Of a stretch of DNA of 64,000 nt, positions 7,626 through 59,812 are shown in pieces; within the stretch, counting starts at the first letter, position 1, and each line of letters starts with the position of its first letter. The position numbers were made by a program, and so were the translations under genes. Location: assembly GCA_016937015.1 (NCBI GenBank), contig JAFGWT010000543.1, positions 30,440-94,439 of the forward strand, written 5' to 3'. The stretch comes from Deltaproteobacteria bacterium. Lineage in GTDB: Bacteria; Myxococcota_A; Polyangia; JAAYKL01. Under the pieces are notes generated by a model that was given only the letters and a program-made list of their open reading frames with translations, was not told the origin of the DNA and did not search any database.

Positions 7626-8489
7626 ATGCTGAACAGAACGATACTTTTTGTAATAATACTGGTGATTTGCGGCTGTGTGAGTACTACCTATGCGCCGCCT
7701 GAGGACGATGTGAAGGATTCGGGGTCTCCCAATGATTCAGATTCGGGGCCAACCGGCGACAGCGACACCGATACCGACACGGACGCTGATACGGACACCG
7801 ATACGGATACTGATACAGACACCGATACCGATACAGACACCGATACCGATACAGACACCGATACCGATACAGACACCGATACGGACACCGATACGGATAC
7901 TGATACAGACACCGATACAGATACAGACACAGATACAGATACAGACACAGATACAGACACAGATACAGACACCGATACGGATACTGACACAGATACCGAC
8001 ACAGACACAGATACTGACATTGATACCACCACTGATTCTGAATCAGGTAGCGACACGATGGATACCGCAGATTCCGAAACGACAGATTCTGGATTGAACT
8101 GCACCGGCGGCACAACGGAATGCAACGGCGACTGCGTTGACTTGACATCAGATCCCAATAACTGCGTGACCTGTGGGAATGTCTGTTCAGACCCCACGCC
8201 ATACTGTGGTGCAACCGGGTGTGAGGCCGGGATTTTGCTGGCATACGGTGTCGGGGTTGAATTAGAGCCTGGCACTTATGCGATAACCACCGGAGCGACA
8301 GATAATCCATCCGGAACTGGTACCCTTGCGTTGCAGTCTGCAGGGGGCACAACCATTGATGCCAGCGTCACCTTTGACGGTACAACCGCCGAGGGCAATG
8401 ATTACTATGTCTCCTTTCCGAATATACCGGAGGAAACGACCGGTTCGCTAACCATCTCTGCATCGGTAACTATTACTTTTGAGTGGTAG
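7626..8489 (+). CDS. secreted lipoprotein: ~90-residue (Asp-Thr)n linker + Cys-rich module + beta-rich C-terminal domain
   Basis: lipoprotein signal (VICGC); DTDTDT... run encoded by GATACNGACACN repeats (7755-8030); C-x-G-x-C-V-D-L-x-S-D-P-N-N-C-x-x-C-G-x-x-C module. Confidence 0.6.
   Translation: MLNRTILFVIILVICGCVSTTYAPPEDDVKDSGSPNDSDSGPTGDSDTDTDTDADTDTDTDTDTDTDTDTDTDTDTDTDTDTDTDTDTDTDTDTDTDTDTDTDTDTDTDTDTDTDTDTDTDTDTDTDTDTDIDTTTDSESGSDTMDTADSETTDSGLNCTGGTTECNGDCVDLTSDPNNCVTCGNVCSDPTPYCGATGCEAGILLAYGVGVELEPGTYAITTGATDNPSGTGTLALQSAGGTTIDASVTFDGTTAEGNDYYVSFPNIPEETTGSLTISASVTITFEW
7755..8030 (+). repeat. GATACN/GACACN hexanucleotide-type coding repeat ((Asp-Thr)n linker)
   Basis: directly visible ~45 dipeptide-coding repeats inside CDS 7626..8489. 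Confidence 0.9.
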
Positions 8490-8585: not shown

Positions 8586-9878
8586 CTAACGTTTCAGGTT
8601 CACGATCTCCTGGTAAAGCTGATCCGCTGTGGTAATGGTTCGGCTGTTGGCCTGGAAACCGCGCTGATATGCAATCAGATCCACAAATTCCGCTGCAAGA
8701 TCCACGTTGGATTGCTCCAATGCGTTTGATGTGATGGACCCGGCAGAACCTTCGCCCGCGCCGCCCACGCGTGCTGCACCGGACCCCTGCGTTTCAGCCC
8801 AGAGATTGCCACCGGCGCGCGCCAGTTCACCCTCGGCGTTGAAAGTCGCCATTGCCACCTGACCCACCAGACGCTGTTCACCGTTGGAGTAAATGGCCAT
8901 CACATGGCCGTTGCCTTCAACTCCCACGCCGTTCAATTCCCCGGTGCCGTAGCCGTCCTGCTCCTGGCTGCGTATGATGCTCGATGCAGCATACTGGGTC
9001 ACGCCATCGAGGCCTGTACCGCCTTCGGCAATGCTTTCGCCAAAATCAACTTGAATATCCTGCGAAGATGCGCCAGCGAAGGTGACCGTAAAAGGTGCGC
9101 TGGTATCATCAGCGAGGAATCCATCTGTGGTGAACGTCATCGTTCCGTTGCCAACCTGAGCATATGCGCCTGGTGTGCCGCCTAAATCGCCGTCATCCAC
9201 CAGACCGTACCATGACCATGCATTGGCACCGGTTTTGGCAAAATAAACGTCCATACGGTGAGATTCGCCAAGCGAATCATATACGGTGATCGCCGTTGAA
9301 AAATTGGATGCAATACCGGGGTCAAAGTTGGGATCCGCCAGATTCCACGGCGCTGTCGGCACATCTGCACCGGAATCCAGGTTTGCGGAAATATCAATGT
9401 TTTCCGATGCCTGAGGTGGCAAAATGGTGTTGGCAATGCGCAGGTCGGTCAGTTGATTGCTGATGTTGCCATTTGCGGTCGCCAGGTACCCCTGCAGGGT
9501 TAATCCCGCAGGATTCACCAGGGCTCCGGAGTTATCAAGCGTAAACTGGCCGGCACGAGTGTAAAAGTCGTTGGTCCACCCTCCGTTATTGCCGTTTACA
9601 ATGAAGAAACCGTTTCCGTTGATGGCGAGATCCGTTGGTGACTCCGTTGTAATAAATGTCCCCTGCGAAAAAACTCGCGTTATCCCCTGAATGGTCGAAC
9701 CCGATCCTGGCGCATCCGTCGCCAGAATGGAATGTCCGAGCACGTCAGCGAATACCACGGATTCCGCCTTGTACCCTGTGGTGTTGACATTGGCGATGTT
9801 GTCACCCACCACGCCAAGCGCTTTGCCATGGGACGCCAGTCCGGCCACGCCTGTGTATAGGGTTTTGATGATACTCAT
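8586..9878 (-). CDS. flgE: flagellar hook protein FlgE
   Basis: N-terminal SxxxGLxxxxxxLxVxGNNIANxNTxGYK and C-terminal VDLAxEFVxLIxxQRGFQANSRxITTADQ signatures. Confidence 0.9.
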   Translation of the reverse strand: MSIIKTLYTGVAGLASHGKALGVVGDNIANVNTTGYKAESVVFADVLGHSILATDAPGSGSTIQGITRVFSQGTFITTESPTDLAINGNGFFIVNGNNGGWTNDFYTRAGQFTLDNSGALVNPAGLTLQGYLATANGNISNQLTDLRIANTILPPQASENIDISANLDSGADVPTAPWNLADPNFDPGIASNFSTAITVYDSLGESHRMDVYFAKTGANAWSWYGLVDDGDLGGTPGAYAQVGNGTMTFTTDGFLADDTSAPFTVTFAGASSQDIQVDFGESIAEGGTGLDGVTQYAASSIIRSQEQDGYGTGELNGVGVEGNGHVMAIYSNGEQRLVGQVAMATFNAEGELARAGGNLWAETQGSGAARVGGAGEGSAGSITSNALEQSNVDLAAEFVDLIAYQRGFQANSRTITTADQLYQEIVNLKR

Positions 9879-9932
9879 TCGAACTCTCCTTAGGCTGTTG
9901 GCACATCAGTGTGCCGCATTCCTAACACCTCA

Positions 9933-10610
9933 TCAGTTAGTCGTGCTGGGGTAAACTCCCACTATATTTGCTACAGTCGCCTGTAGATCACCCAGTTCCA
10001 GTATTGCGGATCCGCTGTTATAATTAACGCCGTCCACTTTAGCTCTAACGCGTGCTTCATATTGTATGGGGGTACCATCGCTGTCAGCCGCATGGACTGC
10101 CATTGTGTACACCCCCGCGGGTACCAGCTCCCCGTTGTTGTCCATAGTGTTCCATTCCACGTCCACCGATCCCATATTCTTCGAACCAAGATTCATGCTG
10201 CGAACCACGTCTCCAGCGCTGTTTGAAAAATCCACTATCACATTGTCCGCATTCTTGGTGAGTATGAATCCAGTATGGACCGGATCTCCTGTGCCATTAA
10301 CCATCATGTTTTTGCTGATAACTTCCACTTCCTTGCCGATATAGGATGCAGCGGAACTCTCGTATGCAGCCGTCTGAATGGTGCCCAGATTCGAGATCCC
10401 TTCGTTGACTGACACGAGCTGTTCCACGTTGGAGAAAGTGGCCAGCTGGGCGACAAACTCGTGATTCTTCATCGGCTCAAGCGGATCCTGATGCTGCATC
10501 TGAGAGATGAGCAATTTCAGAAAATCCTCCTTGCCCATAAATGAATTGTCAGAAGACTGACTTTTCAAAATCTGGGTTGTGGCACTTTCTGCGATGGTTC
10601 CAATAGTCAT
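9933..10610 (-). CDS. flgD: flagellar hook assembly/capping protein FlgD
   Basis: KEDFLKLLISQMQHQDPLEPMKNHEFVAQLATFSNVEQL matches FlgD N-terminal signature; position between fliK and flgE. Confidence 0.85.
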   Translation of the reverse strand: MTIGTIAESATTQILKSQSSDNSFMGKEDFLKLLISQMQHQDPLEPMKNHEFVAQLATFSNVEQLVSVNEGISNLGTIQTAAYESSAASYIGKEVEVISKNMMVNGTGDPVHTGFILTKNADNVIVDFSNSAGDVVRSMNLGSKNMGSVDVEWNTMDNNGELVPAGVYTMAVHAADSDGTPIQYEARVRAKVDGVNYNSGSAILELGDLQATVANIVGVYPSTTN

Positions 10611-10689
10611 TGTCTATTTCCTCATCGGTGCAAAATGCGTTGTCGCAAATTGCGGTGCATGCCGGATATGATCCATGGCATGACGAGTC

Positions 10690-11547
10690 TCATCGGAGAC
10701 CGGCGTGCGTTGACACTGTGGTCCCGTTGTTATGCTGTCCCTCAACTGAGCCAGCGCGCCTGTACCCTCGGGAAATCTCGAACTGTTCAAGGGAAAGGTC
10801 GATCCCTGAAAGCTGCCGTTTGAGCTCGCCGATTGCAAATGAGAGCGCAGCGGCCGCGCGACGGTCCGTAATGTGCGCGGTAATGAAGACCTTTTTTCCC
10901 TTAAGCGTAACATCCAGTTTTACTTCTCCCAGTTCCTTTAAATCCAGCGTCAAAAAAACGCTGTTTCTTTTGCTCAAGCTGGTACTACGCAAGACGCGTA
11001 CCAACTTTTTGAGTTCTGCCTCTGAAACCAGCGATACCAGTGCAGTCTTGCCTTGAGAAGGCGGGCGAGCAGGCATTGAAGCAAATGCAGATGCTGGAAT
11101 TTCCTTGTTAATTTGCGAATTTGCAACTTCAGATGCTTCAGATTGATGCCCCTTGTGAGCGCCGCGATGACGCGCATTCATCGAGTGATTGCTGTACTGC
11201 TGTTCAGGATTTTGACTACCGGTGCTTTTTACAGTGACAGTGGTATGACGTTTTTCTGACAGATCCCCAGAACTATTGACGCTTTCCGGGATAATCGCTG
11301 GCAGGCAGTGATGTACTGGCCTGTCGTGTCTTTTCTGTTCCTCTTTGTCAGGATTTCCACCTGGGTTCGCTGCGGCAGCGTATAGAGATGCGCCAATTGA
11401 ACCAGCATCGGTGCCTGCTTTTTGACGGGTTTCTTCCATTAATCGGGCAAATGGTGTCAACGCGGGATCCTGTATCACCACTGAATTCGTTGACATGTGC
11501 ATCGGAGGTGCAGGAGTATGGGGCATGGGCAAATCAATCTGCATCAT
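10690..11547 (-). CDS. fliK: flagellar hook-length control protein FliK
   Basis: Pro/Ala/Gln-rich N-terminal half, C-terminal L-x-L-x-L-x-E-L-G-x-V-x-L FliK_C-like segment; position fliJ-flbB-fliK-flgD; ATGA overlap with upstream gene. Confidence 0.7.
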   Translation of the reverse strand: MMQIDLPMPHTPAPPMHMSTNSVVIQDPALTPFARLMEETRQKAGTDAGSIGASLYAAAANPGGNPDKEEQKRHDRPVHHCLPAIIPESVNSSGDLSEKRHTTVTVKSTGSQNPEQQYSNHSMNARHRGAHKGHQSEASEVANSQINKEIPASAFASMPARPPSQGKTALVSLVSEAELKKLVRVLRSTSLSKRNSVFLTLDLKELGEVKLDVTLKGKKVFITAHITDRRAAAALSFAIGELKRQLSGIDLSLEQFEISRGYRRAGSVEGQHNNGTTVSTHAGLR

Positions 11548-12374
11548 TTCTGCTCTCCATCCGTGTCGGTCTTTCCATCGGGCGCTTCTGGCAATGCCAC
11601 GTCTTCCAGCTCCGGAACGGTTGGTACCCTGGGGCCCATCAGGCCGCGCGCGAGCTCCGCGGCCTTTACAGGTGCCATATTGCTTAAAATCTCCGCGGTC
11701 TTGGTGCTGCTCAGTCCGCTCAACACTTCAATTGCGTCTTCAGTGGGCATTGACGTAATCATTTGTGCGCAGGATTGAGGATTCATCCCTTCGATGGTTT
11801 TGAGCAGCTGTTCAACCCGTTGCTGCCTCTCTTTTCGCAACCGTTGAATCTCTGGCTGTAGGCTTTCTTTGTTTTCAGATTCTGTGTAATTAAGATATTT
11901 TACAATGAATTCTTTATGTTTTTCTTTGATTTTTTCCCAGTGCTTCAGGAGCTTTTCATGCTCTTTTTTATACTGTTCAGCAATCTGTGCACCGGCATTG
12001 TTAAGGGTGTCCTGGGTATCGCTTCTGAGTTTTTCAAGGGCCGATTTCTGAAACAGTGCCTCGGATTCAAGCCGGGTAACCATCTGTTCCCGCTGGATTA
12101 TGTCCCGTTCCTTCTGTTCCAGGCTGACGCGTTTTGCTTCGAGCAGCTGCGCAATTTCCACCAGTTCGTTCCCGGTTACCTGGATCGGCGGAATTGCGGA
12201 TAAATCGATCACCTTGTCTTTCGTCGCCGCGCCATTTTCAGTTTCCGCCGCCGTATCTTCGGTGTCCGCAGTATTTGAATCCCTTGCTGTATCTTTGGAT
12301 TTGTCGGACTTTTCAAAATATCCGCAGCCTGCAATAAAAACCAGCCAACCATATATAAATATACGCGTTATCAC
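11544..12374 (-). CDS. flbB: flagellar operon MgtE_N-domain protein (FlbB / YlxF-like)
   Basis: N-terminal TM/lipobox, coiled coil, C-terminal MgtE_N-like segment (AQMITSMPTEDAIEVLSGLSSTKTAEILSNMAPVKAAEL); occupies the ylxF slot of Bacillus/spirochaete fla operons. Confidence 0.6.
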   Translation of the reverse strand: MITRIFIYGWLVFIAGCGYFEKSDKSKDTARDSNTADTEDTAAETENGAATKDKVIDLSAIPPIQVTGNELVEIAQLLEAKRVSLEQKERDIIQREQMVTRLESEALFQKSALEKLRSDTQDTLNNAGAQIAEQYKKEHEKLLKHWEKIKEKHKEFIVKYLNYTESENKESLQPEIQRLRKERQQRVEQLLKTIEGMNPQSCAQMITSMPTEDAIEVLSGLSSTKTAEILSNMAPVKAAELARGLMGPRVPTVPELEDVALPEAPDGKTDTDGEQK

Positions 12375-12814
12375 CGATGTGCCTCCCGTGTGGCGGTCAG
12401 ATCATCAATCTCAGACTGCTGTTTGAGACTCTGGTCCCTCTCCAATGCCTCTTTCCGATGTGTGTGCAGCGTTTCCATCTGTTTTACTCTTTTATGCGAT
12501 GCAAGCAGCTTTGCACGCCTGGCCTCGGTGTCGTGCTTTTTCTGTGCCAACTGATTCTCACTTTTTCGCAGGTCCGACTGCGCCCATTTGGCACTCTGTT
12601 CGGCAAGGGCGAGGTCTTCCGGCGTAATGCTCTTTCCCGTGATGTCACGAATCGCATTCAATTCGCCATCAAGCGCCTGCATGGCCATGTCGCGTTCGGA
12701 TTCGGCATGGGCTTCGTTTCGTCGTGCTTCGTCCATTTCTTTGGCGTCGATATCCCGCTGGCGTTCCCGGAACGCGATGAGCCTTTTGATTTTTCTAATG
12801 TTTTCGGCTGTCAT
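12371..12814 (-). CDS. fliJ: flagellar export chaperone FliJ
   Basis: 147-aa charged coiled-coil protein immediately downstream of fliI, 4-nt overlaps on both sides. Confidence 0.7.
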   Translation of the reverse strand: MTAENIRKIKRLIAFRERQRDIDAKEMDEARRNEAHAESERDMAMQALDGELNAIRDITGKSITPEDLALAEQSAKWAQSDLRKSENQLAQKKHDTEARRAKLLASHKRVKQMETLHTHRKEALERDQSLKQQSEIDDLTATREAHR

Positions 12815-14163
12815 GAGTTGCGCCTTTTGTTCTTCCGACTCCCCGCTTCAACCTGCCTTATCAGCGTCGCCAATTGCTGCGTGGATTCGTCGTAGCCGGA
12901 ACGGGTTGTCTGAGGCTGGGATACGTAGTTCATGAACAGGGGCATGAACTGTATGGCCTTGTCAACCGTGGCATCACTGCCCTGCTGGTATGCGCCAATT
13001 TTGATCAAATCTTCGGCCTGATAGTAGTCTGACAGCATGGCGCTGGCCTCTCTGGCAGCGGCCATATTTTCAGGGGAGGATAACTGGGTTATCAGTCGCG
13101 ATTTGCTGGAAAGTACATCCACCGCCGGATAAATACCCCGGTTTGCATAGTCCCTTGACAAAATGATGTGTCCATCCAGCAGGGCTCGCGTGCTGTCTGC
13201 CACTGGGTCCACCATATCGTCGCCTTCCACCAAAACCGTGTAAATGCCTGTAATGCTGCCATTTTTGCTGTTGCCAGCGCGCTCCAGAAGCCTGGCGAGC
13301 TCGACAAATACAGAAGGCGGATATCCTTTGGTAGCCGGTAATTCACCACCTGCGAGTCCCACTTCCCGCAACGCCATCGCATATCGGGTCAGTGAATCGA
13401 GCAGCAGTACCACCCGTCGTCCCTTATCCCGAAAATATTCGGCAATCGATGTAGCGTAGAGAGCGCCACGAACACGGGTTAGGGGGGCCTGATCCCCTGT
13501 TACCGCCACCACGCAGGTGCGGCTTCGGTTTTCGGCAGTGACGGCATCCTCTACGAACTCGCGGACTTCACGGCCGCGTTCTCCCACCAGTCCAATCACG
13601 CAAACATCGAATTCGCCATGCATGCTCAGCATTGAAAGCAGAGTGGTTTTGCCAACACCCGCACCCGCGTAAATCCCCACACGTTGCCCCTGGCCCAGCG
13701 TCAGCATCGAATCGAGAACCCGGACGCCTGTTTCGAGAATCCTGTCGATGCGGGTTCGGCTCATTGGACTTGGAGGCGTGCCTCGGAGGGATTGTCGGGC
13801 GTTCAGCGTCAATGGCTTGTCATCGAGGGCACGGCCATGGGCGTCCACAATCCGTCCCAGCAGTTCATCGCCCACCGGAACCAGAGTATCCGTATTGCGC
13901 AATGTGGCGGTGCATCCGGTGAAAATGCCTTCGAGCGAATCAAATGCCATGCATAGGACATGATCTTCATCAATTCCTATCGCTTCTGCTGCCAGCGGTC
14001 TGGACGCACCCGGTGGCCACAAATCCACCTGCTGGCCCACAGATGCCCGTAATCCGCGCACTTTCAGCACCGGACCCACAATGGAAATCACCTGTCCCTC
14101 CATCTTCAGCCGGGACAGTTCCTTCATATGCGCAATGAACTGCTGCTCCTGTGCGGCCAGCAT
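12811..14163 (-). CDS. fliI: flagellum-specific ATPase FliI
   Basis: Walker A GIYAGAGVGKTTLL, Walker B VVLLLDSLTRYA, F1-beta-like fold; flanked by fliH and fliJ. Confidence 0.95.
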   Translation of the reverse strand: MLAAQEQQFIAHMKELSRLKMEGQVISIVGPVLKVRGLRASVGQQVDLWPPGASRPLAAEAIGIDEDHVLCMAFDSLEGIFTGCTATLRNTDTLVPVGDELLGRIVDAHGRALDDKPLTLNARQSLRGTPPSPMSRTRIDRILETGVRVLDSMLTLGQGQRVGIYAGAGVGKTTLLSMLSMHGEFDVCVIGLVGERGREVREFVEDAVTAENRSRTCVVAVTGDQAPLTRVRGALYATSIAEYFRDKGRRVVLLLDSLTRYAMALREVGLAGGELPATKGYPPSVFVELARLLERAGNSKNGSITGIYTVLVEGDDMVDPVADSTRALLDGHIILSRDYANRGIYPAVDVLSSKSRLITQLSSPENMAAAREASAMLSDYYQAEDLIKIGAYQQGSDATVDKAIQFMPLFMNYVSQPQTTRSGYDESTQQLATLIRQVEAGSRKNKRRNS

Positions 14164-14828
14164 CAGATGTCTCCTCCCTGCTCAAGTGAAAACAAAGTTT
14201 TCAGCTTCGCCAGCCGCTGGAATACCTCTGCGTTAACCGTTTTCCTGCCTGCATTCACCACACACCCCATCGCGGACACCGACGGGTCCACCTTAACGGT
14301 CACATTCTCCATCTCCTCCAGGAGATTCAGTAATTCGTGCTCTTCAAATGCGGCGTGGATGTCCGGATGCAGTCGCACCACTGGGCGATCCGATTCATCA
14401 AACATTCCTAGAGATTCTTTAACAATTTCAATTGTTTTCTCCGGTTTTGCCTCAAGAGTGCCACAGGTCAGCTGTTCAGCGATGGCGAAGGCCAGTCTGA
14501 CACAGAATGAGAGATCCCGTTCTGTCATTTCCTTCCTGACCCGTGCCAGCTCGCTGATGGATGTGGCCAACAACTTCAGATTGTTTTCAACCCTCGGGTC
14601 CGGCTCGGGTTCGGGTGGCGGCGGCGGCGGTGGTTCCGGCTCGGGCGGTGGCGGTGGTTCCGATTTTGGCCTGCTGTGCATCTGCGGCCCCGGTTGCGGC
14701 GTTGCGAATGGTTGTCCAATAACAATATTTGAAATCGGCTCTTCTGCCGCAGCTTTCGCGGACGCACCAGACCAGTCCGGCGTTCCCACATCAAATCCAC
14801 CTTTGTTCTCCGGATCGAACCAGATCAT
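14163..14828 (-). CDS. fliH: flagellar assembly protein FliH
   Basis: position between fliG and fliI; coiled-coil then FliH_C-like segment; contains an EPEPPPPPPPEPEP low-complexity insert. Confidence 0.7.
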   Translation of the reverse strand: MIWFDPENKGGFDVGTPDWSGASAKAAAEEPISNIVIGQPFATPQPGPQMHSRPKSEPPPPPEPEPPPPPPPEPEPDPRVENNLKLLATSISELARVRKEMTERDLSFCVRLAFAIAEQLTCGTLEAKPEKTIEIVKESLGMFDESDRPVVRLHPDIHAAFEEHELLNLLEEMENVTVKVDPSVSAMGCVVNAGRKTVNAEVFQRLAKLKTLFSLEQGGDI

Positions 14829-15868
14829 ACAATTTCCTCTCCGCCACGTCCCGCGACCACGATGGCACCTTCTGATTCAAGCCGCAATGCCGTATCCACA
14901 ATCTCCTGCTGTGCCTTTTCCACCTCGGACAACTTGACCGGACCCATGGCCGCAAGGTCGTCCAAAAGTATCTCCGCGGCACGACTCGACACCGACGACA
15001 ATATTTTGTCCCGCAGGGTATCGCTTGCGGTCTTGAGTGCGAGTACCAGCTGATCGTTGCTGATTTCCTTGATGACCGCCTGCATGCCGCGGCCCTGAAC
15101 ACTTATAAGATCTTCGAATCCAAACATCGCTCGTCGCAGGCGCAGCACCATCCCCGGATCCTCATCCCCAATATTGGTGAGCAGATCCTCGGTTTCATCA
15201 ATGGATAGATTGGAAAGGATGCCAGCCACCCGTGCAATCCCATCCACCTGGATACTGTCTCCGGAATCCACTTCGGACAGCTGGTCTTCAACCGCCGTAA
15301 ACAGGGCGGTAACCGTCGAATTGGGAATCGATTCCAGGGTCGCCATTTTGGCCAGGATTTTGGCCTGGATTTCCCCATCCATCAGGCTCAGCACTTTGGC
15401 GGCGTACCCCGGGGATAGCTCCGCCAGAATGGCAGCAACCACCTGCGGGTTTTCAGGCTCAAGCACAGCAACCACTTCTTCAGGCGTTCTTTTTTCGATG
15501 GATGCATATGGTTTGTCGTGGTCGGTTTCCTTGAAAAGGGAGCGACTTCGGTCACTTCCAAGGGAACGCTGTGCCAGCCTTTCAATGTATGCAGTTCCGG
15601 CGCCTGCCGGTAGAACTGGGGTTCGCGCGTCGTTTAGAAAATCGCGATATGTTCTGGCAAGGGAGGTTGAATCGGTTTGATATTCCTTACCTGCCAGCGC
15701 GTGCAGCATTCGAATATCCTCGGGACTCATGTGGCGAAGCACTTTTGATACAGTGTCTTCTTCTAGAGACATTATCAGCAGCACGGCCTGCGTGGGCTTT
15801 GTCAATTCCACGTACTTTTTCTGCTCCGCGGGTGGATTGGCGGGCTGCTTAGCGATTTGCGTTGCCAT
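14825..15868 (-). CDS. fliG: flagellar motor switch protein FliG
   Basis: 347 aa; armadillo-like repeats, conserved charged C-terminal torque helix region (..ILLDDLAAMGPVKLSEVEKAQQEIV..). Confidence 0.9.
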   Translation of the reverse strand: MATQIAKQPANPPAEQKKYVELTKPTQAVLLIMSLEEDTVSKVLRHMSPEDIRMLHALAGKEYQTDSTSLARTYRDFLNDARTPVLPAGAGTAYIERLAQRSLGSDRSRSLFKETDHDKPYASIEKRTPEEVVAVLEPENPQVVAAILAELSPGYAAKVLSLMDGEIQAKILAKMATLESIPNSTVTALFTAVEDQLSEVDSGDSIQVDGIARVAGILSNLSIDETEDLLTNIGDEDPGMVLRLRRAMFGFEDLISVQGRGMQAVIKEISNDQLVLALKTASDTLRDKILSSVSSRAAEILLDDLAAMGPVKLSEVEKAQQEIVDTALRLESEGAIVVAGRGGEEIV

Positions 15869-17601
15869 CAGCTGTTCTCCCTCGCTGCCACGGGTTTTTC
15901 ATGAATCCATTTTTTAATGATGCGGGCAGCAGTTTCGCTGTCTTCTTCAAACACGTTTTTCACCTGCGCCATCATTTCGGTTGTGCGATTGGCGTATTCC
16001 TCGAATCCAGGCGGAGCGTTAAAAATTGACATGTCCGGAAGAGATGCCACAGATTGGGGGGACATCCCGTCGGTCTGGCCTGGCAACTGTCTGTTTTGTT
16101 CCTCGATCATTGATTCCAGCTCATGTACCGGTCTGGGGAAGGGAAGGGTGCCAGTACCGGGCTGCGCACCCAGAAAATGTGTTCCCATGGACGCCGTCGC
16201 GGGTTGGTGGCGTTTTCTGAATGTGGCCAGCGCCAAAAATGCAAACAGCACCACCAGAACGCCAACTGCGATGGGCAGGTACTGTTTCCACGGGAACGGC
16301 GCCTTAATCGCCTCGTCGTCCAGCGGTTCGGGCTGATGGAAGGAAATGGACTGAACAGAGATCTGATCCCCCCGATTCTTGCTGTACCCTATCGCGCCCT
16401 GAACGGCGGTTTCAATTTTTTTCAGCTCCTCTTTTGAGCGGGGGACAAACTTTTCGCCCTCTTTATTAACTCCATCAACCAGCACCGAAATGGTGATTCT
16501 TTCCAGTTCACTTCCGGTGCCAATCGTTTTTTTGACGATTTTATCGATTTCCCAGTTTTTGGTTTCCAGTTCCTTGCGCGTGTTGCTCTGCGCGTTATTG
16601 GATCCTGGCTGTTCCCCCCCCGGCAGATTGGACCGCGAACCGGGAATCCCCTCGCCACCACCGCTTTGCGTCCCAGCCACTTCCAGTTCCCTGCGCTCAC
16701 TGCGGACAGCTGTTTTGGCAGGGTCGTAATGTTCCTCCTGAACTTCGTTTTTACTGAAGTCAAATTCGGCCGCCACTCGGGTAATTGATTTGCCAGGCCC
16801 CACGAGCTGGTCGAGCATCTCCTGAACGCTCTGCTGGATGTTTTGCTCATAGCGGGTTTTAAACTCCATGCCCTCGCCACCGTTGCCCCCCACACCTGAC
16901 CTGGCGGACAAGAGCTTTCCGTGGGTGTCGACAATCGTTACCTGATCGGGGGAGAGTCCTTCCACACTCGATGATACAAGGTGAACAATGGCACTTACGG
17001 TCTCTTTGGGGAGTTCCCGTCCCCGGTGAAGCTCAAGAATCACGGAAGCCTGCGCAGGTGTTGACTCCTTGCCGAGCAGCGTGCGCTTGGGCAGAACCAG
17101 GTTGGCCTTTGCGTTTTTCACAACATTGATGCGGGCGATGGTACGTGACAATTCGCCTTCCAGTGCCCGTCTCATGGCAACGCGTTCTTCGAATTCGGTC
17201 ATCCCGAACTGTTGGTGATCAAACAGTTCGAAACCGACGCCGCCGCCGGTGGGCAGTCCTTCAGTGGCCAGTTCAAGACGCAGTTCGTGAAGACTTTCGT
17301 CGGGAACCAGAATTCGTGTGCCAGCCTCTTCAAGCCGGTAAGGAATTTTTTTGCCTTTCACAAATTCAATGATCGCCGAAGCGTCTTCGGGGGTCAGATT
17401 ATTGTAAAGCGTGCGATAACTGTTGTTTTCGACAGTCATCAGCATCGCGGTGGCGCCAAGAGTAAGAATCCCGATGATAATTACCGACGCTTTCAGCATC
17501 CTGGGCTGTTGTTGCCAGAATCCTTTGACCTGCAGCAGCTTTTCCCTGGCCACATCCTGGGGCTGCTTTTTAACGCCGTTAGTCTGATTATTGTTGTCCA
17601 T
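15868..17601 (-). CDS. fliF: flagellar M-ring protein FliF
   Basis: 577 aa, two TM segments flanking a large periplasmic domain, C-terminal FliG-binding tail; canonical fliE-fliF-fliG order. Confidence 0.9.
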   Translation of the reverse strand: MDNNNQTNGVKKQPQDVAREKLLQVKGFWQQQPRMLKASVIIIGILTLGATAMLMTVENNSYRTLYNNLTPEDASAIIEFVKGKKIPYRLEEAGTRILVPDESLHELRLELATEGLPTGGGVGFELFDHQQFGMTEFEERVAMRRALEGELSRTIARINVVKNAKANLVLPKRTLLGKESTPAQASVILELHRGRELPKETVSAIVHLVSSSVEGLSPDQVTIVDTHGKLLSARSGVGGNGGEGMEFKTRYEQNIQQSVQEMLDQLVGPGKSITRVAAEFDFSKNEVQEEHYDPAKTAVRSERRELEVAGTQSGGGEGIPGSRSNLPGGEQPGSNNAQSNTRKELETKNWEIDKIVKKTIGTGSELERITISVLVDGVNKEGEKFVPRSKEELKKIETAVQGAIGYSKNRGDQISVQSISFHQPEPLDDEAIKAPFPWKQYLPIAVGVLVVLFAFLALATFRKRHQPATASMGTHFLGAQPGTGTLPFPRPVHELESMIEEQNRQLPGQTDGMSPQSVASLPDMSIFNAPPGFEEYANRTTEMMAQVKNVFEEDSETAARIIKKWIHEKPVAARENS

Positions 17602-18359: not shown

Positions 18360-18752
18360 TTATCTACCATCCGCAGCCGCATACTTCAGGATGCCCAGCT
18401 GGTGGCTGACCACTTTGCTCACAGTTTCATATCTCAGGGTATTGGCGTTCAACTGAGCCATTTCCTTGTCGAGACTCACATAGTTCAAGTCATTTCCGGG
18501 AACGTGATCCCGAACTTCGTAAACCTCGTATTCGCTGGCCAGTCCCAGTCCGTTGGTTTTGTAGTGCGTGTCATGGGTGCGCTGCAGCGCCATTGCGAAT
18601 TCACTACCCCCTTCAAAATCGCTTCGTTTTATTTCTTTAGGGGTAAATCCCGGGGTATCCACGTTGGCGATATTCCCCGAAATGAGATTTTGCCGCGCCA
18701 TATGAAAATTCAGGGCGCTCGCAACGCCGTTCACATTGTCAAACATGCTCAT
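18360..18752 (-). CDS. flgB: flagellar basal-body rod protein FlgB
   Basis: SGNIANVDTPGF rod motif, 130 aa, precedes flgC. Confidence 0.9.
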   Translation of the reverse strand: MSMFDNVNGVASALNFHMARQNLISGNIANVDTPGFTPKEIKRSDFEGGSEFAMALQRTHDTHYKTNGLGLASEYEVYEVRDHVPGNDLNYVSLDKEMAQLNANTLRYETVSKVVSHQLGILKYAAADGR

Positions 18753-20332
18753 GGGGTTGCCCCTTTCTTTTTCAGGTTTTCCAGCTGTCCCTGCATCTCC
18801 TGTGTCTGCTTTTTTATCGTTGCCAGAGTGGCCCAGCTGCTGTTGCGATCCTGCAGGATTTTAAGGATACTTTGATACAATCCGTTGTTCTTCTTTTGTT
18901 CCGCATCCAGAAGTCCGTAATACAGCGCATGATCGGGCAACGTACTCAACGCCTTTACCGACAGGCGCTTGCCTTCCTTAAGTGCGATTTCAGTACGCAG
19001 TCTTGTTGCGAATTTGTTCTGAATCCCGTCGATTCGATTTTTGTTCGCGTCCGGGATGATCAGTTCTGTGGAGGTGGCTCGTTCTGCCCGCACCGTCGCT
19101 TCAACGTGTGCCAGATTATCGTGGGATGATAGCGAAATCAGGGTTTCAGCCTCGGTAAAATCATCGACAGCCGCAATCCAATCTCCCTCCTGCAGCCCAA
19201 CATACGCACGCACCCTGAGCAGACGTCCACGCGCCCAACCAGGCAGGGCTTTTTCTTCAAGAAAGTACGATGCGGCGTCTCGTGCTTTTACGTACTGTCC
19301 AGCGTCAAGATATGTTTCGGCCAGTACTGGTGCTGCCCGCAACAAATCCTTGTTGTCCAGTCGTCCCATGATTCTGTCTGAATACGCGGCCAATACAGAA
19401 CCCAATCCAATCCGAATCAGATGGTCCGCCGCGATTTCAAGCAGATTGAGCGAAAAAAATCGCGTTAAGTAGTCTTTTTCAAATTTAATAAACGTGTCTG
19501 TAAGCCTGGAGGTGTCATCCAAACGTGCGTATTTCAGCAGTGTATTGATTAGGATTGTTTTTCGATGTGTTTCTATTCGCTGCAGAATCTTTTCAGATTC
19601 TTTCTCTCTGTTAGGGGTTTCTCGGAGATAGTCACCCAAAGTGCTTAAAATGTATTCCGCTTCATCCACATCACCAATGGAAAATTGACACCAGGAGATC
19701 AGAAATGCTGATTCGATGGCTTCGGGTGTATCAAATCTGCTGGAGAGCGGATTGCACTTTGCTGCGACACTTTCAGTGAGTGCTGCCTCCACCACATTGA
19801 TGCGGTTTTCGGTCAACAGTTTCTTTTCCGGTGCTGCGGATTCTTCGAGAAAAAGCGCCTTGCGCGCACCGACAACATCGCCCTTTTTTAACAGTTCTAT
19901 TGTATGAACAGGCAGTGGAACAAGCGAATCCGGATCGAGCAAAGCGTTCAGTGCATCCTTTTCCGAACGTGAATTGCCAACGATAATTTGGACCTTTTTA
20001 TGCTGTTTCTTTCCATTGAATTTTAAAGACGCATTCTTGGAGTACAGCTCAACGGTCATTTTGGACTGACGGTTTGGGAACAGCCGATACTCAATATCAG
20101 TATTTTCAAGCGAATCACGAATTTCCTGCTCCTGCACAGGTGACCATTCCCTGAAATACATACGCACGCCACGCTCATCTTCGTCCTCTTCCAGATGAAC
20201 AATTTTTTCGTCAAAGGCCAGAACAGAAAGCTCTTTGAGTGACCACATGTCGTCATCAGCGGCGGCAATGCCTGGCAAAACGATGGCGACTGAAAAGAGT
20301 AACGTGATGTGAATTTTATTCGGACATTTCAT
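18749..20332 (-). CDS. secreted TPR-like/helical-repeat protein, first gene of the flagellar operon
   Basis: clear signal peptide (KIHITLLFSVAIVLPGIAAA); 4-nt overlap with flgB start implies co-transcription; no recognisable catalytic motif. Confidence 0.5.
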   Translation of the reverse strand: MKCPNKIHITLLFSVAIVLPGIAAADDDMWSLKELSVLAFDEKIVHLEEDEDERGVRMYFREWSPVQEQEIRDSLENTDIEYRLFPNRQSKMTVELYSKNASLKFNGKKQHKKVQIIVGNSRSEKDALNALLDPDSLVPLPVHTIELLKKGDVVGARKALFLEESAAPEKKLLTENRINVVEAALTESVAAKCNPLSSRFDTPEAIESAFLISWCQFSIGDVDEAEYILSTLGDYLRETPNREKESEKILQRIETHRKTILINTLLKYARLDDTSRLTDTFIKFEKDYLTRFFSLNLLEIAADHLIRIGLGSVLAAYSDRIMGRLDNKDLLRAAPVLAETYLDAGQYVKARDAASYFLEEKALPGWARGRLLRVRAYVGLQEGDWIAAVDDFTEAETLISLSSHDNLAHVEATVRAERATSTELIIPDANKNRIDGIQNKFATRLRTEIALKEGKRLSVKALSTLPDHALYYGLLDAEQKKNNGLYQSILKILQDRNSSWATLATIKKQTQEMQGQLENLKKKGATP

Positions 20333-20466: not shown

Positions 20467-20562
20467 TCAATGGACGATGCAGGCAATGGACGATGCAGGC
20501 AATGGACGATGCAGGCAATGGACGATGCAGGCAATGAACGATGCAGGCAATGGACGATGCAG
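20467..20562. repeat. 6 x 16-bp perfect tandem direct repeat (CAATGGACGATGCAGG; copy 5 has one G>A)
   Basis: read directly from sequence; lies in the 270-bp leader between the xylanase 3' end and the flagellar operon start. Confidence 0.95.
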
Positions 20563-20603
20563 GTTTGCGATAAATCGACGGGGAAAGGAATGGGGAAGTG
20601 GAA

Positions 20604-21779
20604 TCAGTCGAACCTAACGGTTACTTCAGCGTGACCGGAGCTATGATATCCCTCTACAACCAACGATACCTCGTAGAAAGATCCCATTTGCAGGCCATAC
20701 TGTCCCCATGCCTGAAAGTGGGGGGCGACAGTAATCGTGCCGCTGGTACGCTTGTCGGTGCGCACGCTCCAGAACTGTGGGAAAGTGGCGGTTCCTTCGA
20801 TGGACGGCTGGTTGATTCGGTCGCTTTTGTATACCTCATAAGTGCCACCATCCACCTGAATCGTACCCAGGGGGCTTGTCCCTGGTGGACGCCAGCTGCC
20901 CCAGCTATCCACGATGTAGTATTCAACCAACGGATTTTGCGTCCAGCCGTAAATCGCCAGATAGGAATTGCCGTTGGGCTGGTAATTCGCACTGTAGGTC
21001 ACCACAGGCTCGGCGGATCCGGGTCTGACGCCTTTTCGGGCCAGATAATTCCCCTGTGCCTCGGTCCAGTCTGCGACAAAGCCGACCGCGGTATTGGTCA
21101 TACAGGCGGAACCACTGTCCGTCCAGATTTCGTAGGTGAGTCCGCAATGCTTACCTGACTGTGCGCTCGCGCAAGCCTGCATATCCCCTTCGGTACATGC
21201 GGGGGGATCGGCGTCTGTATCCGTGTCCGTATCGGTATCAGTGTCCGTATCAGTGTCCGTATCAGTGTCTGTGTCCGTATCGGTATCGGTATCCGTATCA
21301 GTGTCCGTATCAGTGTCGGTGTCAGAATCCGTAGCGCCGGGTTCGCAACAGATTGGTGTCTCTGATGGACATGTGTAGTCGGGGAGATAAGTGCCATTCA
21401 TGTTTCGACATTCTCCCTGTCCAACACAAGTTCCCGGACAATTCGTATCGCCATCTGAATCAGTGTCCGTATCTGTATCGCTGTCCGAATCCGAGTCTGA
21501 ATCGGTATCTGTATCCGTGTCCGAGTCGGTGTCTGAATCTGAATCAGTGTCTGAATCTGAATCAGTATCCGAATCAGTGTCTGAATCAGTGTCTGAATCC
21601 GAATCAGAATCGCTGTCAGTGTCTGTGTCACTGTCGGTATCTGCATCTGAATCCGAATCGCTATCTGAGTCGGAATCTGAATCGCTGCTGCCTTCTCTTA
21701 AATTGTCTTCTCCGCCAGTACACGCCGCGAAGAGAGAGACGGCAGACAGTAAGATTAAAACCAGTGCATGCTTCGTCAT
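20604..21779 (-). CDS. GH11 endo-1,4-beta-xylanase with lipoprotein signal, two (Asp-Ser/Asp-Thr)n linkers and an 8-Cys mini-module
   Basis: C-terminal 190 aa align by eye to GH11 signatures ([22 protein letters not shown] ... [12 protein letters not shown] ... [21 protein letters not shown]; both catalytic Glu present); start set at Met with lipobox LFAAC. Confidence 0.9.
21201..21332 (-). repeat. (Asp-Thr)n coding repeat, xylanase linker 2
   Basis: GTATCNGTGTCN repeats visible on + strand. Confidence 0.9.
21444..21686 (-). repeat. (Asp-Ser/Asp-Thr)n coding repeat, xylanase linker 1
   Basis: ~80-residue SD/TD run encoded by GA(R)TC/GTGTC-type repeats. Confidence 0.9.
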
Positions 21780-27133: not shown

Positions 27134-27286
27134 TTGCCAATTCTGTTATTTGTGATTTTTTGTAATTTTATCAAATAGATGTCCCGTCTTCATGTGGTAT
27201 AATTGTATTTTACGCCGTTTAGCCTGATTGATGAGATTGGGGTGTGCGGCATATCAGACGGACGCCATTTTATTCTGGAGGCATTT

Positions 27287-28177
27287 ATGAAGATGGTTAC
27301 TTTTACTCGGTCTGCCTTATTATTGTTTTTACTGTTTTTGTTGCTTGCAATGATATCGTGTTCGGAAAAGAGCGCGGATGAGCCACTGAATGACACCAAC
27401 CTCTCGGAGAATCAAGATACTACCACTGATTTTTCTGGCGACACGGATACTGATACCGACACCGATACTGATACAGATACCGACACCGATACTGATACCG
27501 ACACAGATACTGACACAGATACTGATACAGATACTGATACAGATACTGATACCGACACTGATACCGACACTGATACTGATACAGATACCGACACAGATAC
27601 TGTTACCAACACAGATGTCGACATGCATTCCGATTCAGATACGGCTACTGGTTCTGAAGATGATACAGACACTGGTTCCGGTTTAAATACTGATTCTGAT
27701 TTTGATGCTGACAGTGTTACTGACACAGATACGCATGCTGATTCCGACACGAGTGCCGACGCGAATACTGATACCGCAACAGATTCCGGCACCGATGCCG
27801 CCCCGGTGGCTGCTATTCTGGACGATTTACATCCGGGGTGGTACGCAAATGACTGGCACTACAAATCCAACTGCGCCTATAGTAACTGCCACAATGGTCT
27901 TGGTCCGGATCTGCCCACCGATCATGGAAGCTACGACGAACCATATTGCGCGGATTGCCATGGGGGAAATGGCGCATGGAAGCCAAATACTGCACACAAC
28001 CACCACCCGTCCCCCATGCCGACGAATTGTACTGGTTGCCATACCAACGGGCAACATGGCTTTACTCAGGACGCGGATTGCATTGCCTGCCATCTTGCGA
28101 ATGTTGGTACGGTGGATGGCTTCAGCACGCTTGGATGCGAAGCCGTGATATGCCATGCGGTTACCCCCACGCCGTAA
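27287..28177 (+). CDS. lipoprotein with (Asp-Thr)n linker and C-terminal c3-like multihaem cytochrome module
   Basis: GGAGG RBS; signal+lipobox (LAMISC); 3 canonical CxxCH (CADCH, CTGCH, CIACH) plus 2 CxxxxCH (CAYSNCH, CEAVICH) within ~100 aa with many extra His. Confidence 0.6.
   Translation: MKMVTFTRSALLLFLLFLLLAMISCSEKSADEPLNDTNLSENQDTTTDFSGDTDTDTDTDTDTDTDTDTDTDTDTDTDTDTDTDTDTDTDTDTDTDTDTDTDTDTVTNTDVDMHSDSDTATGSEDDTDTGSGLNTDSDFDADSVTDTDTHADSDTSADANTDTATDSGTDAAPVAAILDDLHPGWYANDWHYKSNCAYSNCHNGLGPDLPTDHGSYDEPYCADCHGGNGAWKPNTAHNHHPSPMPTNCTGCHTNGQHGFTQDADCIACHLANVGTVDGFSTLGCEAVICHAVTPTP
27441..27620 (+). repeat. (Asp-Thr)n coding repeat
   Basis: GATACNGACACN-type repeats, ~58 residues of pure DT. 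Confidence 0.9.
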
Positions 28178-47397: not shown

Positions 47398-48084
47398 ATG
47401 GCGAATAATATGACGTTTTTGGAAACTTCCGTTGGCAAAAAGGTGCTTATGGCCGCCACCGGATTCATCATTTTTGGATTCGTGGTAGTACATATTCTGG
47501 GTAACCTGCAACTTTTTCTGGGGCCGGAAGCGCTGAATCAGTACGCGGCATTCTTGCAGGCGTCCGGTCCCATAAAATGGACCGTGCGTATTGTTCTGGC
47601 TGCCAGTGTGCTGGCTCACATTGTCAGTGCGGTGATGGTAACGCTGCAAAACTGGCGGGCCAGACCACAGAAATACGCGGTAAAACGCTATCAGGAAACC
47701 ACCTATGCTGCGCGCACCATGTGGCTGGGGGGCCCTATTATCGGGCTGTTCGTGGTGTATCATTTGCTGCATTTTACAACTGGACACTGTCATCCGGTTA
47801 AAGCGGGATTTATCCCCGATTCGAACGGGGTTATTAACGTATACAATAACGTCATATTCGGATTTCAGGACACTGTCGCCTCTGGTGTCTATATCTTCAC
47901 AATGGTGCTGATTGGCCTGCATCTGTATCACGGACTGTGGAGTATGATGCAGAGTGTCGGATTGAATCATCCTAAATACAACCATTGGCGCAAGGCATTC
48001 GCGGTGTTGTTCGCGCTGTTAATCGCCACGGCCGGTATCTCGTTGCCTGTATCGGTATTGCTGGGCCTGGTTACTCCGGTGTAA
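47398..48084 (+). CDS. frdC: fumarate reductase/succinate dehydrogenase dihaem cytochrome b subunit (5-TM, type B)
   Basis: 5 predicted TM helices with conserved His pairs; directly precedes flavoprotein and Fe-S subunits (Wolinella/Bacteroides CAB order). Confidence 0.8.
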
Positions 48085-48104
48085 CCGAGACAAGGAGCTT
48101 GCAT

Positions 48105-50018
48105 ATGAAACTTGATTCAAAAGCCCCGGACGGGCCAATCGAAAATCGCTGGGATTCACATAAATTCAACATGAAGCTGGTGAACCCGGCAAACAAGCGG
48201 AAATTTGACATCATCGTCGTAGGGGCCGGGCTCGCGGGTGCGTCGGCATCTGCAACTTTGGCCGAACTCGGATACAACGTGAGATGCTTTTTTTATCAGG
48301 ACAGTCCCAGACGGGCGCACAGTATTGCAGCCCAGGGAGGGATTAACGCCGCAAAAAATTATCAGAGTGATGGCGACAGCATTCATCGTCTGTTTTACGA
48401 CACTGTGAAAGGTGGAGACTATCGTGCGCGGGAATCCAATGTCTATCGGTTGGCTCAGGTCAGCAATAATATTATTGACCAGTGTGTGGCGCAGGGCGTC
48501 CCGTTTGCCAGAGAGTACGGGGGCAATCTGGCGAACCGATCATTTGGCGGCGCGCAGGTATCCCGAACTTTTTATGCCCGTGGACAAACGGGACAGCAGT
48601 TGCTGTTGGGTGCCTATTCGGCGCTGATGGCGCAGGTTAACGCCGGAAAGGTGAAACTGCACCGACGTAGCGAGATGCTTGAACTGGTCGTTGCAGATGG
48701 TCGGGCCCGCGGTATTGTCACCCGCGATATGGTCACTGGAAAAATAGAATCCCATGCTGCAGATGCCGTAGTGCTTGCCACAGGTGGTTACGGCAACGTG
48801 TTTTATCTGTCGACAAATGCCAAGGGATGCAATGTCACTGCAGCCTGGCGGGCATACACAAAAGGCGCTGGATTTGCCAATCCCTGTTACACCCAGATTC
48901 ATCCCACCTGTATTCCGGTGCATGGCGAATATCAGTCCAAACTGACGCTGATGAGCGAATCCCTGCGCAACGATGGCCGCATCTGGGTTCCAAAGAAAAA
49001 GGGTGACGATCGCGTGCCCACATCGATTCCGGACCACGAACGCGATTATTATCTGGAACGTCGATATCCATCATTTGGCAATCTGGTTCCGCGGGACGTA
49101 GCTTCCCGTGCTGCTAAAAAAGTGTGCGATGAAGGCCTTGGCGTTGGCAGCAGTGGTTTAGGGGTTTATCTGGATTTTTCAGACGCGGTAAAGCGACTGG
49201 GCGAAGACGGTGTTCGCGAGCGATATGGTAATCTTTTTCATATGTACGAAAAGATCACCGCAGAGAATCCTTACAAAGTACCGATGCGAATTTTTCCTGC
49301 GGTGCATTACACCATGGGCGGTCTGTGGGTGGATTACAACCTGATGACAACCATTGATGGCTGCTTTGCCATTGGCGAGGCCAATTTTTCCGATCACGGC
49401 GCGAATCGTCTGGGCGCCAGTGCACTGATGCAGGGACTTGCGGACGGTTATTTCATTTTGCCTTACACCATTGGCGACTACCTGGCGACTGCTGGTAAAA
49501 ACAGCATCCACAGCGATGACAAATATTTCTCAAAATCGAAGGATGATGCGCATGGCAAAGTAAACAGGCTGCTGGCCATCAAAGGTGAACGTACCCCGGA
49601 TTCATTTCATCGGGAACTGGGCAAGCTTCTTTGGGACAACTGCGGCATGGCGCGCAGTGACGAGTCGCTTAAGCGCGCGCTGGAAAAAATTCCAAAAATA
49701 AAAGACGAATTTTGGCAAAACGTCAAAGTCCCGGGGGAGGGCAAGGAACTCAATCAAACGCTGGAAATGGCGGGCCGTGTGGCTGACTTCATCGATTTTT
49801 CGGAAGTTCTGGTTAGAGACGCTCTTGCGCGCACCGAGTCCTGTGGCGGTCATTTCAGGGTGGAAAGCCAGACCGATGAAAACGAAGCCAAACGGGACGA
49901 CGATAACTTCGCACATGCGGCCGTGTGGGAATATAAAGGGGAGGGCACCATTCCGGAACGTCATACGGAACAGCTGTCGTTTGAATACTGCAAGCCGAGT
50001 CAAAGGAGTTACAAATAA
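48105..50018 (+). CDS. frdA: fumarate reductase/succinate dehydrogenase flavoprotein subunit
   Basis: [19 protein letters not shown] fold, covalent-FAD His context ([14 protein letters not shown]), active-site HPT and RL motifs; start at MKLDSK. Confidence 0.95.
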
Positions 50019-52386: not shown

Positions 52387-52648
52387 ATTTATTAAACTTA
52401 ATGTTAAAACTTGACCTGGAATCGCAAAGTGAGAAACCTACGGAACCTATCGGAATACAAAAGTTTTTTGGTTAAGAATGGCATTGGAATTTCTTTGAAC
52501 GCGTTTCTTTTATATATTCACTTTTCGCGTCAAAGAGCGTAAAATGTGGCGCAGCAAAAAACAATATCTTTAGGGATATTCACTTAAGGAATCCGGATCT
52601 GATGCAAGGAAAATTTCAGGTCCATAGCAAATTGTGAGGGAATTTATC

Positions 52649-53569: not shown

Positions 53570-53791
53570 CTGAGTCCTCGGATAACCATTTCCCCCATTT
53601 CATTTCTTTTATTCAATCTGTAGGTGATATTTTTTAAGTGACATTCTTTTCCCAGGATGCCGCTGAAAATAACTATTTTTTTTTGAGCCGAATTGAATTT
53701 GGTTCCCACCATATTACTATAGCAACACGAATGATGCCGCAACTGGTTACGGTATCACGTGCTTTTATGTCTTAAACGATGGAGGTCTCTT

Positions 53792-58243: not shown

Positions 58244-59593
<1,350 letters not shown>

Positions 59594-59812
59594 AATTACT
59601 CCTCGTTTTTTTGAGTTCAAACACCTTGTCAATTATCGGTATAGTTTAGTCATAATCCAGCTTGTGCAAAGTGAATAATCGGTTTTTAAAAATATACATT
59701 TTAAAAATACTGAAATTGCAATTTTAATATAATTTTTTGCTTGCGGTCATGATTCCAGAAGTGAGCGGAAAATTCGGAGGTACCCATTAAATGGACCACG
59801 TATCGGCCGTTT

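Follow-up and report, generated by a model that had tools for sequence, protein, structure and literature searches.

The locus described here raises a simple question: what is a short cysteine-rich segment, placed between two long acidic linkers, doing in a lipoprotein xylanase of glycoside hydrolase family 11 (GH11)? The gene lies in a stretch of 64,000 nucleotides (contig JAFGWT010000543.1, positions 30,440 to 94,439) from the metagenome-assembled genome (MAG) GCA_016937015.1 of a deltaproteobacterium; this whole stretch is called the window below, and all coordinates refer to it unless another locus is named. The segment had been singled out in a preliminary description made from the letters and translated open reading frames (ORFs) alone. 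The gene and its parts are as follows.

20604..21779, minus strand: the whole gene, coding for a 391-aa lipoprotein GH11 endo-1,4-beta-xylanase (ORF list and translation; stop codon at 20604-20606).
21720..21779, minus strand: signal peptide and lipobox with Cys20 as the predicted lipidated residue (sequence read directly).
21444..21683, minus strand: acidic linker 1, 80 residues of D-S/D-T dipeptides, residues 33-112 (regular expression on the translation).
21333..21443, minus strand (Cys core 21345-21440): the 37-residue six-Cys mini-domain, residues 113-149 (translation and further instances).
21210..21329, minus strand: acidic linker 2, 40 residues of D-T dipeptides, residues 151-190 (translation).
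21144..21209, minus strand: Cys-containing N-terminal extension of the catalytic domain (C-x7-C-x8-HCG...C, kept in the nearest GH11 relatives).
20619..21143, minus strand: GH11 catalytic domain, residues 213-387 (Pfam PF00457, E=1.2e-64; PDB 4ixl_A, E=6.6e-65).
20922..20924, minus strand: codon of Glu286, at the GH11 nucleophile position (motif aligned to solved GH11 xylanases).
20652..20654, minus strand: codon of Glu376 in VVEGYHSSG, at the GH11 acid/base position (motif aligned to solved GH11 xylanases).

The reading frame is uninterrupted over 391 codons from its ATG, and an in-frame TTG 21 codons upstream would extend the product to 412 aa. As the preliminary description had it, the translation opens with a signal peptide and lipobox, judged by eye from a basic n-region, a hydrophobic core and an F-A-A-C box at Cys20, which is what is expected of a lipoprotein; the LFAAC box also occurs in the orthologue L002 introduced below. 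A 12-residue spacer separates Cys20 from linker 1, which has exactly the 80 residues first reported, and the 37-residue segment was found where it had been placed. Two details had to be revised. The second D-T linker is present, but its length had been given as 44 residues, whereas the regular D-x run covers 40, and 42-44 are obtained only if the ragged ends are included. The segment itself contains six cysteines instead of eight, at residues 114, 118, 124, 137, 144 and 145, which define the framework C-x3-C-x5-C-x12-C-x6-CC.

To see how widely this framework occurs, we searched 1.84 billion representative proteins exhaustively with HMMER and also scanned JGI metagenomes (Ga0316587 and Ga0316588). 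The HMMER search returned the module in four carriers (P0121-P0124 below), a number that is a lower bound, since the window protein and the JGI proteins are missing from the library searched; the metagenome scan added four further module loci (L002-L005).

P0121: lipoprotein signal; two copies of the six-Cys module and two copies of another Cys module.
P0122: lipoprotein signal; linker, module, linker, PMP-repeat beta-helix.
P0123: lipoprotein signal; linker, module, DUF285 repeats.
P0124: lipoprotein signal; another Cys module, with the six-Cys module at the C-terminus.
L002: orthologue of the window xylanase with the same architecture.
L003: lipobox, linker, module, linker, GH10 domain (Pfam E=7e-49).
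L004: lipobox, linker, module, linker, GDSL esterase (Pfam E=1.6e-10).
L005: module, linker, GH54 arabinofuranosidase catalytic domain (Pfam E=9e-76); the protein ends right after it and has no further domain.

P0121, P0122 and P0123 come from the same MAG as the window, and all module carriers with a known N-terminus start with a lipoprotein signal. Word-index protein searches with the module alone and with a six-sequence alignment gave no matches, and when module patterns were run against 185,579 GTDB species representatives, none of the 84 pattern matches was confirmed. The module belongs to a previously undescribed and very rare family that is confined to one uncultured lineage.

The copies are strikingly uniform. 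The spacing of the cysteines is identical in all ten instances, with zero indels, and the alignment of nine full-length copies (A4) has 13 invariant columns, made up of the six Cys, three Pro, two Gly, one Leu and one Tyr. The window gene and L002 have diverged strongly at synonymous sites (pS 0.55-0.62; 0.55 in the module), while the ratio of nonsynonymous to synonymous divergence (pN/pS) is 0.07 in the module and 0.06 in the catalytic domain. AlphaFold2 predicts the module to be compact, with three short strands and a predicted local distance difference test score (pLDDT) of 79 from the single sequence; the score is the same with the alignment. Because the module recurs with identical Cys spacing and is under purifying selection as strong as that on the catalytic domain, we regard it as a real domain, and a genuine, conserved and mobile one. 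The preliminary description had left room for the module to be non-conserved and absent from all other carbohydrate-active enzymes (CAZymes); it is conserved, and in the JGI metagenomes it is found on GH10, GH54, a GDSL esterase and the orthologous GH11.

A second Cys module accompanies the first in P0121 and P0124, lipoproteins in which it is found without a catalytic domain. It follows approximately the pattern C-x6-C-x8-C-x3-W-x6-C-x6-C-x8-C (e.g. CEDGSRQCNGDMLEMCTDGKWRDFDDCEIQSEVCTVLMGVYQC), and it has no match in Pfam.

We then compared the six-Cys module with known families. Among the CBM (carbohydrate-binding module) models of Pfam, none matched at E<=1 when the whole protein was the query, or at E<=10 with the isolated module, in line with the initial impression that no canonical CBM is visible; the same thresholds gave no dockerin match, and no Pfam model of any kind rose above threshold on the isolated module. 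A profile search of all PDB sequences with the module retrieved no relative, clip domains included. The profile search that the preliminary description had proposed thus connects the module with no known CBM, dockerin or PDB sequence. Literature on acidic repeat linkers and on Cys-rich CBMs of xylanases was searched as well, and nothing relevant was found.

The only Pfam signal that recurs is PF18398 (CLIP_SPH_mas, the clip domain of masquerade, an arthropod serine-protease homologue), which is hit by six of the nine copies over its full 33-position profile. Scores lie at 11-15 bits against a gathering score of 26; the best real copy reaches E=0.027, and the best score of 14.9 bits (E=0.036) belongs to a hand-made consensus sequence. 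When the non-Cys residues were shuffled and the cysteines kept (six variants), no PF18398 match was left, nor was there any after shuffling of all residues (four variants). The signal therefore does not stem from the Cys framework alone, as it is lost in all Cys-kept shuffles. The six Cys of clip domains, of which the fifth and sixth are neighbours, define the family and form three disulfides, and a role in protein-protein interaction is ascribed to these domains (PMC4676143). The arthropod domains resemble the module in their length of ~33-35 residues, their six Cys and the adjacent Cys5-Cys6 pair (PMC4676143), a pair that is seen in all ten module instances. They differ in context: clip domains are found in arthropods, N-terminal to serine-protease domains and in protease cascades, whereas the module is bacterial, occurs on glycoside hydrolases and has lipoprotein partners of the GH11, GH10, GH54, GDSL, PMP and DUF285 types. 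With scores below the gathering threshold of PF18398 and this different context, membership in the clip families (PF18398/PF12032) is not supported, and homology to them is unproven.

The framework C-x3-C-x5-C-x12-C-x6-CC also recalls that of beta-defensins. A CS-alpha/beta (cis-defensin) reading of 'CPGTC...GEC' was considered and rejected: only three residues lie between the CxxxC and GxC elements, no helix is predicted and a C-terminal CxC is lacking. Up to 2024, the defensins reported from bacteria were all of the cis type, and the trans-defensin-like scaffold was known only from animals (PMC11561630).

Small disulfide-containing CBMs offer another comparison, and here the likeness is one of size and setting. 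Fungal CBM1 has ~36 aa, and bacterial CBM10, with ~45 aa, is found in Cellvibrio xylanases and cellulases behind poly-Ser linkers. They share with the module their size, the presumed disulfides, the position behind low-complexity linkers and the fact that they are often the sole accessory domain. The module differs from both in the number and framework of its Cys, and it has only two conserved aromatic positions.

What, then, might the module do? We consider it a serious possibility, though short of a probable one, that it is a new small carbohydrate-targeting, CBM-like unit on a surface-tethered xylanase. GH11, GH10, GH54 and GDSL esterases provide four activities that jointly dismantle arabinoxylan, and substrate targeting is favoured because the partners of the module include these four distinct arabinoxylan-active catalytic domains. 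It is further favoured because the module is the only accessory fold of the xylan-active carriers (in the GH11, GH10, GH54 and GDSL-esterase proteins it is the sole folded non-catalytic domain), because other tethered lipoproteins of the same genome do without it, and because the order enzyme, linker, module, linker, anchor corresponds to the classical CBM layout, in which a small module usually sits between two linkers.

In such a scheme, cleavage by signal peptidase II would leave the protein held at the cell envelope by its acylated Cys20. The GH11 domain would be carried ~170 residues out on a polyanionic, probably extended (Asp-Ser/Asp-Thr)n tether, with the mini-domain, folding independently into its three predicted short beta strands and presumably locked by three disulfides, lying about two thirds of the way along. 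There it would hold the tethered enzyme on plant cell-wall material containing arabinoxylan, so that the GH11 domain, on the 40 residues of linker 2, would work at a high local substrate concentration and release its products close to the cell. Surface exposure, the disulfides and carbohydrate binding are what we infer here from sequence.

Several points weigh against this proposal. The module is also found on a DUF285 protein, on a PMP-repeat beta-helix and on two lipoproteins composed of Cys modules only, and a general role at the surface or in protein interaction would explain all of its partners at once. Conserved aromatic residues are few, namely an invariant Tyr in column 24 and a Tyr, Phe or Ile in column 20. 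The sole resemblance in the databases points to modules for protein-protein interaction, the arthropod clip domains. The apparent preference for hemicellulases comes from a small sample, ten instances in two JGI metagenomes, one MAG and one ENA assembly; the display of the lipoprotein at the cell surface is an assumption; and the uniformity of the linker cassette, described below, is unexplained if the module is a CBM. Of the functions first suggested for the module, carbohydrate binding consequently stands in part: a carbohydrate-related accessory unit is a reasonable reading of its CAZyme company, but the module also sits on non-CAZyme surface proteins and the binding itself is inferred. Nothing points to the metal binding that had been offered as the other option.

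A protein-protein docking module, dockerin-like or clip-like, that lets tethered enzymes and adhesin-like proteins bind one another or a shared partner and so gathers them into a hemicellulase-rich surface complex is unlikely, yet it accounts for several of the observations just listed. It would fit the presence of the module on the functionally unrelated DUF285 and PMP beta-helix surface proteins, and P0121, with nothing but Cys modules and two copies of the six-Cys one, has the look of an adaptor. The clip profile, as the only Pfam signal, found in six of nine copies and abolished in all six Cys-kept shuffles, points the same way, given the interaction role ascribed to clip domains (PMC4676143). 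On the other hand, the carriers with a known N-terminus are already lipid-anchored, and docking is therefore not needed to retain them. No cohesin-like partner protein was identified, the Ca-binding repeats of dockerins are absent according to Pfam, and the clip match stays at or below 14.9 bits against the required 26, with no clip domain in the PDB profile search.

Somewhat more doubtful is a structural element of the tether that has no ligand of its own, that is, a disulfide-locked node serving in spacing, in resistance to proteolysis or in recognition during export or sorting. Its appeal lies in the cassette, which is uniform in five proteins with differing signal peptides and C-terminal domains: linker 1 has 74-80 and linker 2 32-56 residues, while the tethers in the window that lack the module vary more, with regular D-x runs of 26-86 residues. 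Moreover, Gly and Pro make up most of the conserved residues other than Cys, a picture typical of a purely structural constraint. However, other tethered lipoproteins of the same genome lack the module, and neither position nor spacing is obligatory, since the module lies at the extreme C-terminus in P0121 and P0124 and, in P0123, 44 residues from the anchor without a second acidic linker. The strength of purifying selection, which equals that on the catalytic domain and reaches surface positions too, also suggests a ligand.

Finally, that the module is non-functional, either a Cys-rich stretch that interrupts the low-complexity linker by chance or a product of faulty assembly in a MAG contig full of repeats, is extremely improbable: although the gene product is absent from the public protein collections searched and the repetitive flanking DNA could have led to mis-assembled linker lengths, the module has nine other occurrences with identical Cys spacing in independent assemblies (two JGI metagenomes, ENA, NCBI and Logan), a pN/pS of 0.07 and a confident AlphaFold2 prediction, and recurrence together with purifying selection refutes this explanation as far as sequence goes.

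The DNA of linker 1 is an imperfect repeat with periods of 12, 30 and 42, and that of linker 2 repeats with periods of 12 and 48. The product, with either of its possible starts, was in none of the protein collections queried, in which neighbour genes of the same MAG contig are present; owing to the repeats, it was possibly left uncalled or flagged as a pseudogene.

Turning from the module to the enzyme that carries it, the catalytic domain is by its sequence an ordinary GH11 xylanase with both catalytic Glu intact. It scores 217.7 bits with PF00457 (cut-off 27) and covers positions 3-178 of the 178 in the profile. In GH11 enzymes, the nucleophile lies in a PLxEYY strand and the acid/base in EGYxSSG; both motifs are in place in the window protein and align with those of solved GH11 xylanases, and we take Glu286 to be the nucleophile and Glu376 the acid/base, following established GH11 knowledge. 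The earlier assignment to GH11, with both Glu contexts, is thereby borne out by Pfam and PDB matches. The Cys-containing extension in front of the domain follows the pattern C-x7-C-x8-HCG...C, whose fourth Cys, residue 226, falls inside the GH11 match, and the nearest GH11 relatives, Sorangium proteins among them, keep this pattern.

Among the 120 nearest relatives listed, the GH11 domain is 59-78% identical to that of the window protein. The top 21 matches, nearly all of them unnamed metagenomic proteins, have 68-78% identity, and Sorangium proteins ~60-67%. Relatives such as PDB 4IXL and 2F6B and the lipoprotein GH11s of Sorangium and of metagenomic Myxococcota-like bacteria share the full-length catalytic domain and both Glu motifs. 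The nearest ones also have the Cys-containing N-terminal extension, and most of the 120 carry a lipobox (Cys at ~17-31 after a hydrophobic N-terminus) and a long low-complexity linker. The linkers differ in composition, being rich in Gly, Thr and Ser ('TGG') in the relatives and built of (Asp-Ser/Asp-Thr)n in the window protein.

The six-Cys module of the window protein is absent from all 120 of these relatives. About 12 of them (e.g. P0016, P0017, P0021, P0061 and P0117) have a different six-Cys module, with a weak Pfam match to ShK (E=0.052), which occupies the same slot in the order lipobox, linker, module, linker, GH11. Its framework, C-x14-C-x9-C-x10-C-x3-C-x2-C, cannot be aligned with that of the window module. 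The clade as a whole thus shares the theme of a GH11 enzyme that is lipid-anchored on a tether and may carry a small Cys module in it; in the window gene, this theme is varied by acidic tethers and a new module.

The acidic tethers also occur on other proteins. The preliminary description had noted the same type of linker on redox and adhesion proteins, and we count four further lipoproteins of the window with such tethers, all without the six-Cys module.

7626-8489, plus strand: Stig1-like Cys-rich lipoprotein with an Asp-Thr tether of ~90 residues, the motif CxGxCVDLxxDxxNCxxCG and an unassigned C-terminal domain.
27203-28177, plus strand: multihaem cytochrome-c3-like lipoprotein with an Asp-Thr-rich tether of >100 residues and, at its end, a Cys/His-rich domain that has several CxxCH-like motifs (weak c3 match, E=8e-4).
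52634-53569 and 53759-54724, plus strand: two adjacent Cys-rich paralogous lipoproteins with Asp-Ser tethers and a Cys-rich domain of ~230 residues.

Judged by its motifs, 27203-28177 may encode a multihaem cytochrome carried by a long polyanionic tether, with a possible bearing on extracellular electron transfer. For the two paralogues, no Pfam match was obtained at E<=10 for the first, in truncated form, or at E<=0.001 for the second. A comparable protein is encoded at locus L005 (1276-2106 of that locus, plus strand), directly after the GH54 gene: a lipoprotein with an Asp-Ser tether of ~60 residues and an unassigned domain that contains Cys. Tethering of lipoproteins in this style is therefore found across the lineage.

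Long (Asp-Ser)n stalks that hold a functional domain off the cell surface are also a feature of the staphylococcal MSCRAMM proteins (ClfA, ClfB, SdrC and SdrD), and the xylanase is like them in this respect. Unlike these adhesins, it has neither an LPXTG signal nor an adhesin A-domain, and its anchor would be an N-terminal lipid. Identity with an MSCRAMM adhesin was examined and rejected: the NCBIfam matches (E=8e-26 to 4e-16) lie only on the SD repeats and reach 90 bits against a cut-off of 1150. Being confined to these repeats and far below the family cut-offs, the ClfA/Sdr matches are composition artefacts.

As for the organism, the locus tags of the MAG begin with JXX14_, its reads are deposited under SRR13394436, and FliI and GuaA of the window are the database proteins MBN2719281 and MBN2719307. 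When SdhA (47985-50018) was compared with the 185,579 GTDB species representatives, the best identities were 66-75% and scattered over many phyla. Since SdhA is at most 75% identical to any of them and its matches lie in many phyla, there is no close reference genome, and the MAG appears to come from a poorly sampled lineage.

The surroundings of the gene had been described as housekeeping and flagellar, with the xylanase as a lone fibre-degrading enzyme abutting the flagellar operon. Flagellar genes are indeed present as described (FlgE, FlgD, FliK-like, FliI, FliH, FliG and FliF at 8586-17601), and the enzyme is fairly called lone, as no other glycoside hydrolase was found among the window ORFs scanned. 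The xylanase does not abut the operon, however: a 271-bp spacer and a gene for a 527-aa protein stand between it and flgB. This gene (18749-20332, minus strand) lies downstream of the xylanase on the same strand, and its 3' end overlaps flgB, which is followed by flgC, fliE and fliF. Its product is secreted, shows a faint TPR signal only and is not a recognised flagellar component, although the gene is apparently the first of the flgB-flgC-fliE-fliF cluster. The 271 bp that separate the stop codon of the xylanase from the first codon of the 527-aa gene contain a tandem repeat of six 16-bp units (CAATGGACGATGCAGG, 97% matches) at 20468-20563. Upstream of the xylanase, and divergent from it, lie holB, a PSP1-domain gene, a HEAT-repeat gene and tatD.

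A functional link between xylanase and flagella was considered and rejected, as adjacency is all that speaks for it. The window contains no Rfam family and no tRNA, and in the spacer downstream of the xylanase a simple consensus scan predicted neither a promoter nor a terminator. The adjacency to the flagellar cluster looks incidental. The GC content around the xylanase is that of the rest of the window. Elsewhere in the window, a 462-aa protein (58244-59632, minus strand) has a C2 domain (Pfam E=1e-13), a domain known mainly from eukaryotic proteins.

In conclusion, these results do not overturn current understanding, and the interest of the locus lies in the mini-domain, the xylanase itself being ordinary. 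With no family assignment, no solved relative, an extremely narrow distribution and four xylan-active partners, the module is a candidate for a new CBM family. If this is true, a disulfide-locked binder of 37 residues would be among the smallest known and useful as a fusion tag. If the likeness to arthropod clip and beta-defensin-type domains is structural, such a Cys framework would be unexpected in bacteria. The boldest version, to which we give only a slim chance, is that the module founds a new carbohydrate-binding (or surface-docking) family with a clip- or beta-defensin-like framework, and that the lineage organises an arabinoxylan-degrading set of GH11, GH10, GH54 and esterase with calibrated polyanionic tethers. 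For the biology of this lineage, the finding points to a lineage-wide way of displaying proteins, in which a lipid anchor and very long (Asp-Ser/Asp-Thr)n tethers would serve enzymes, cytochromes and Cys-rich proteins alike.

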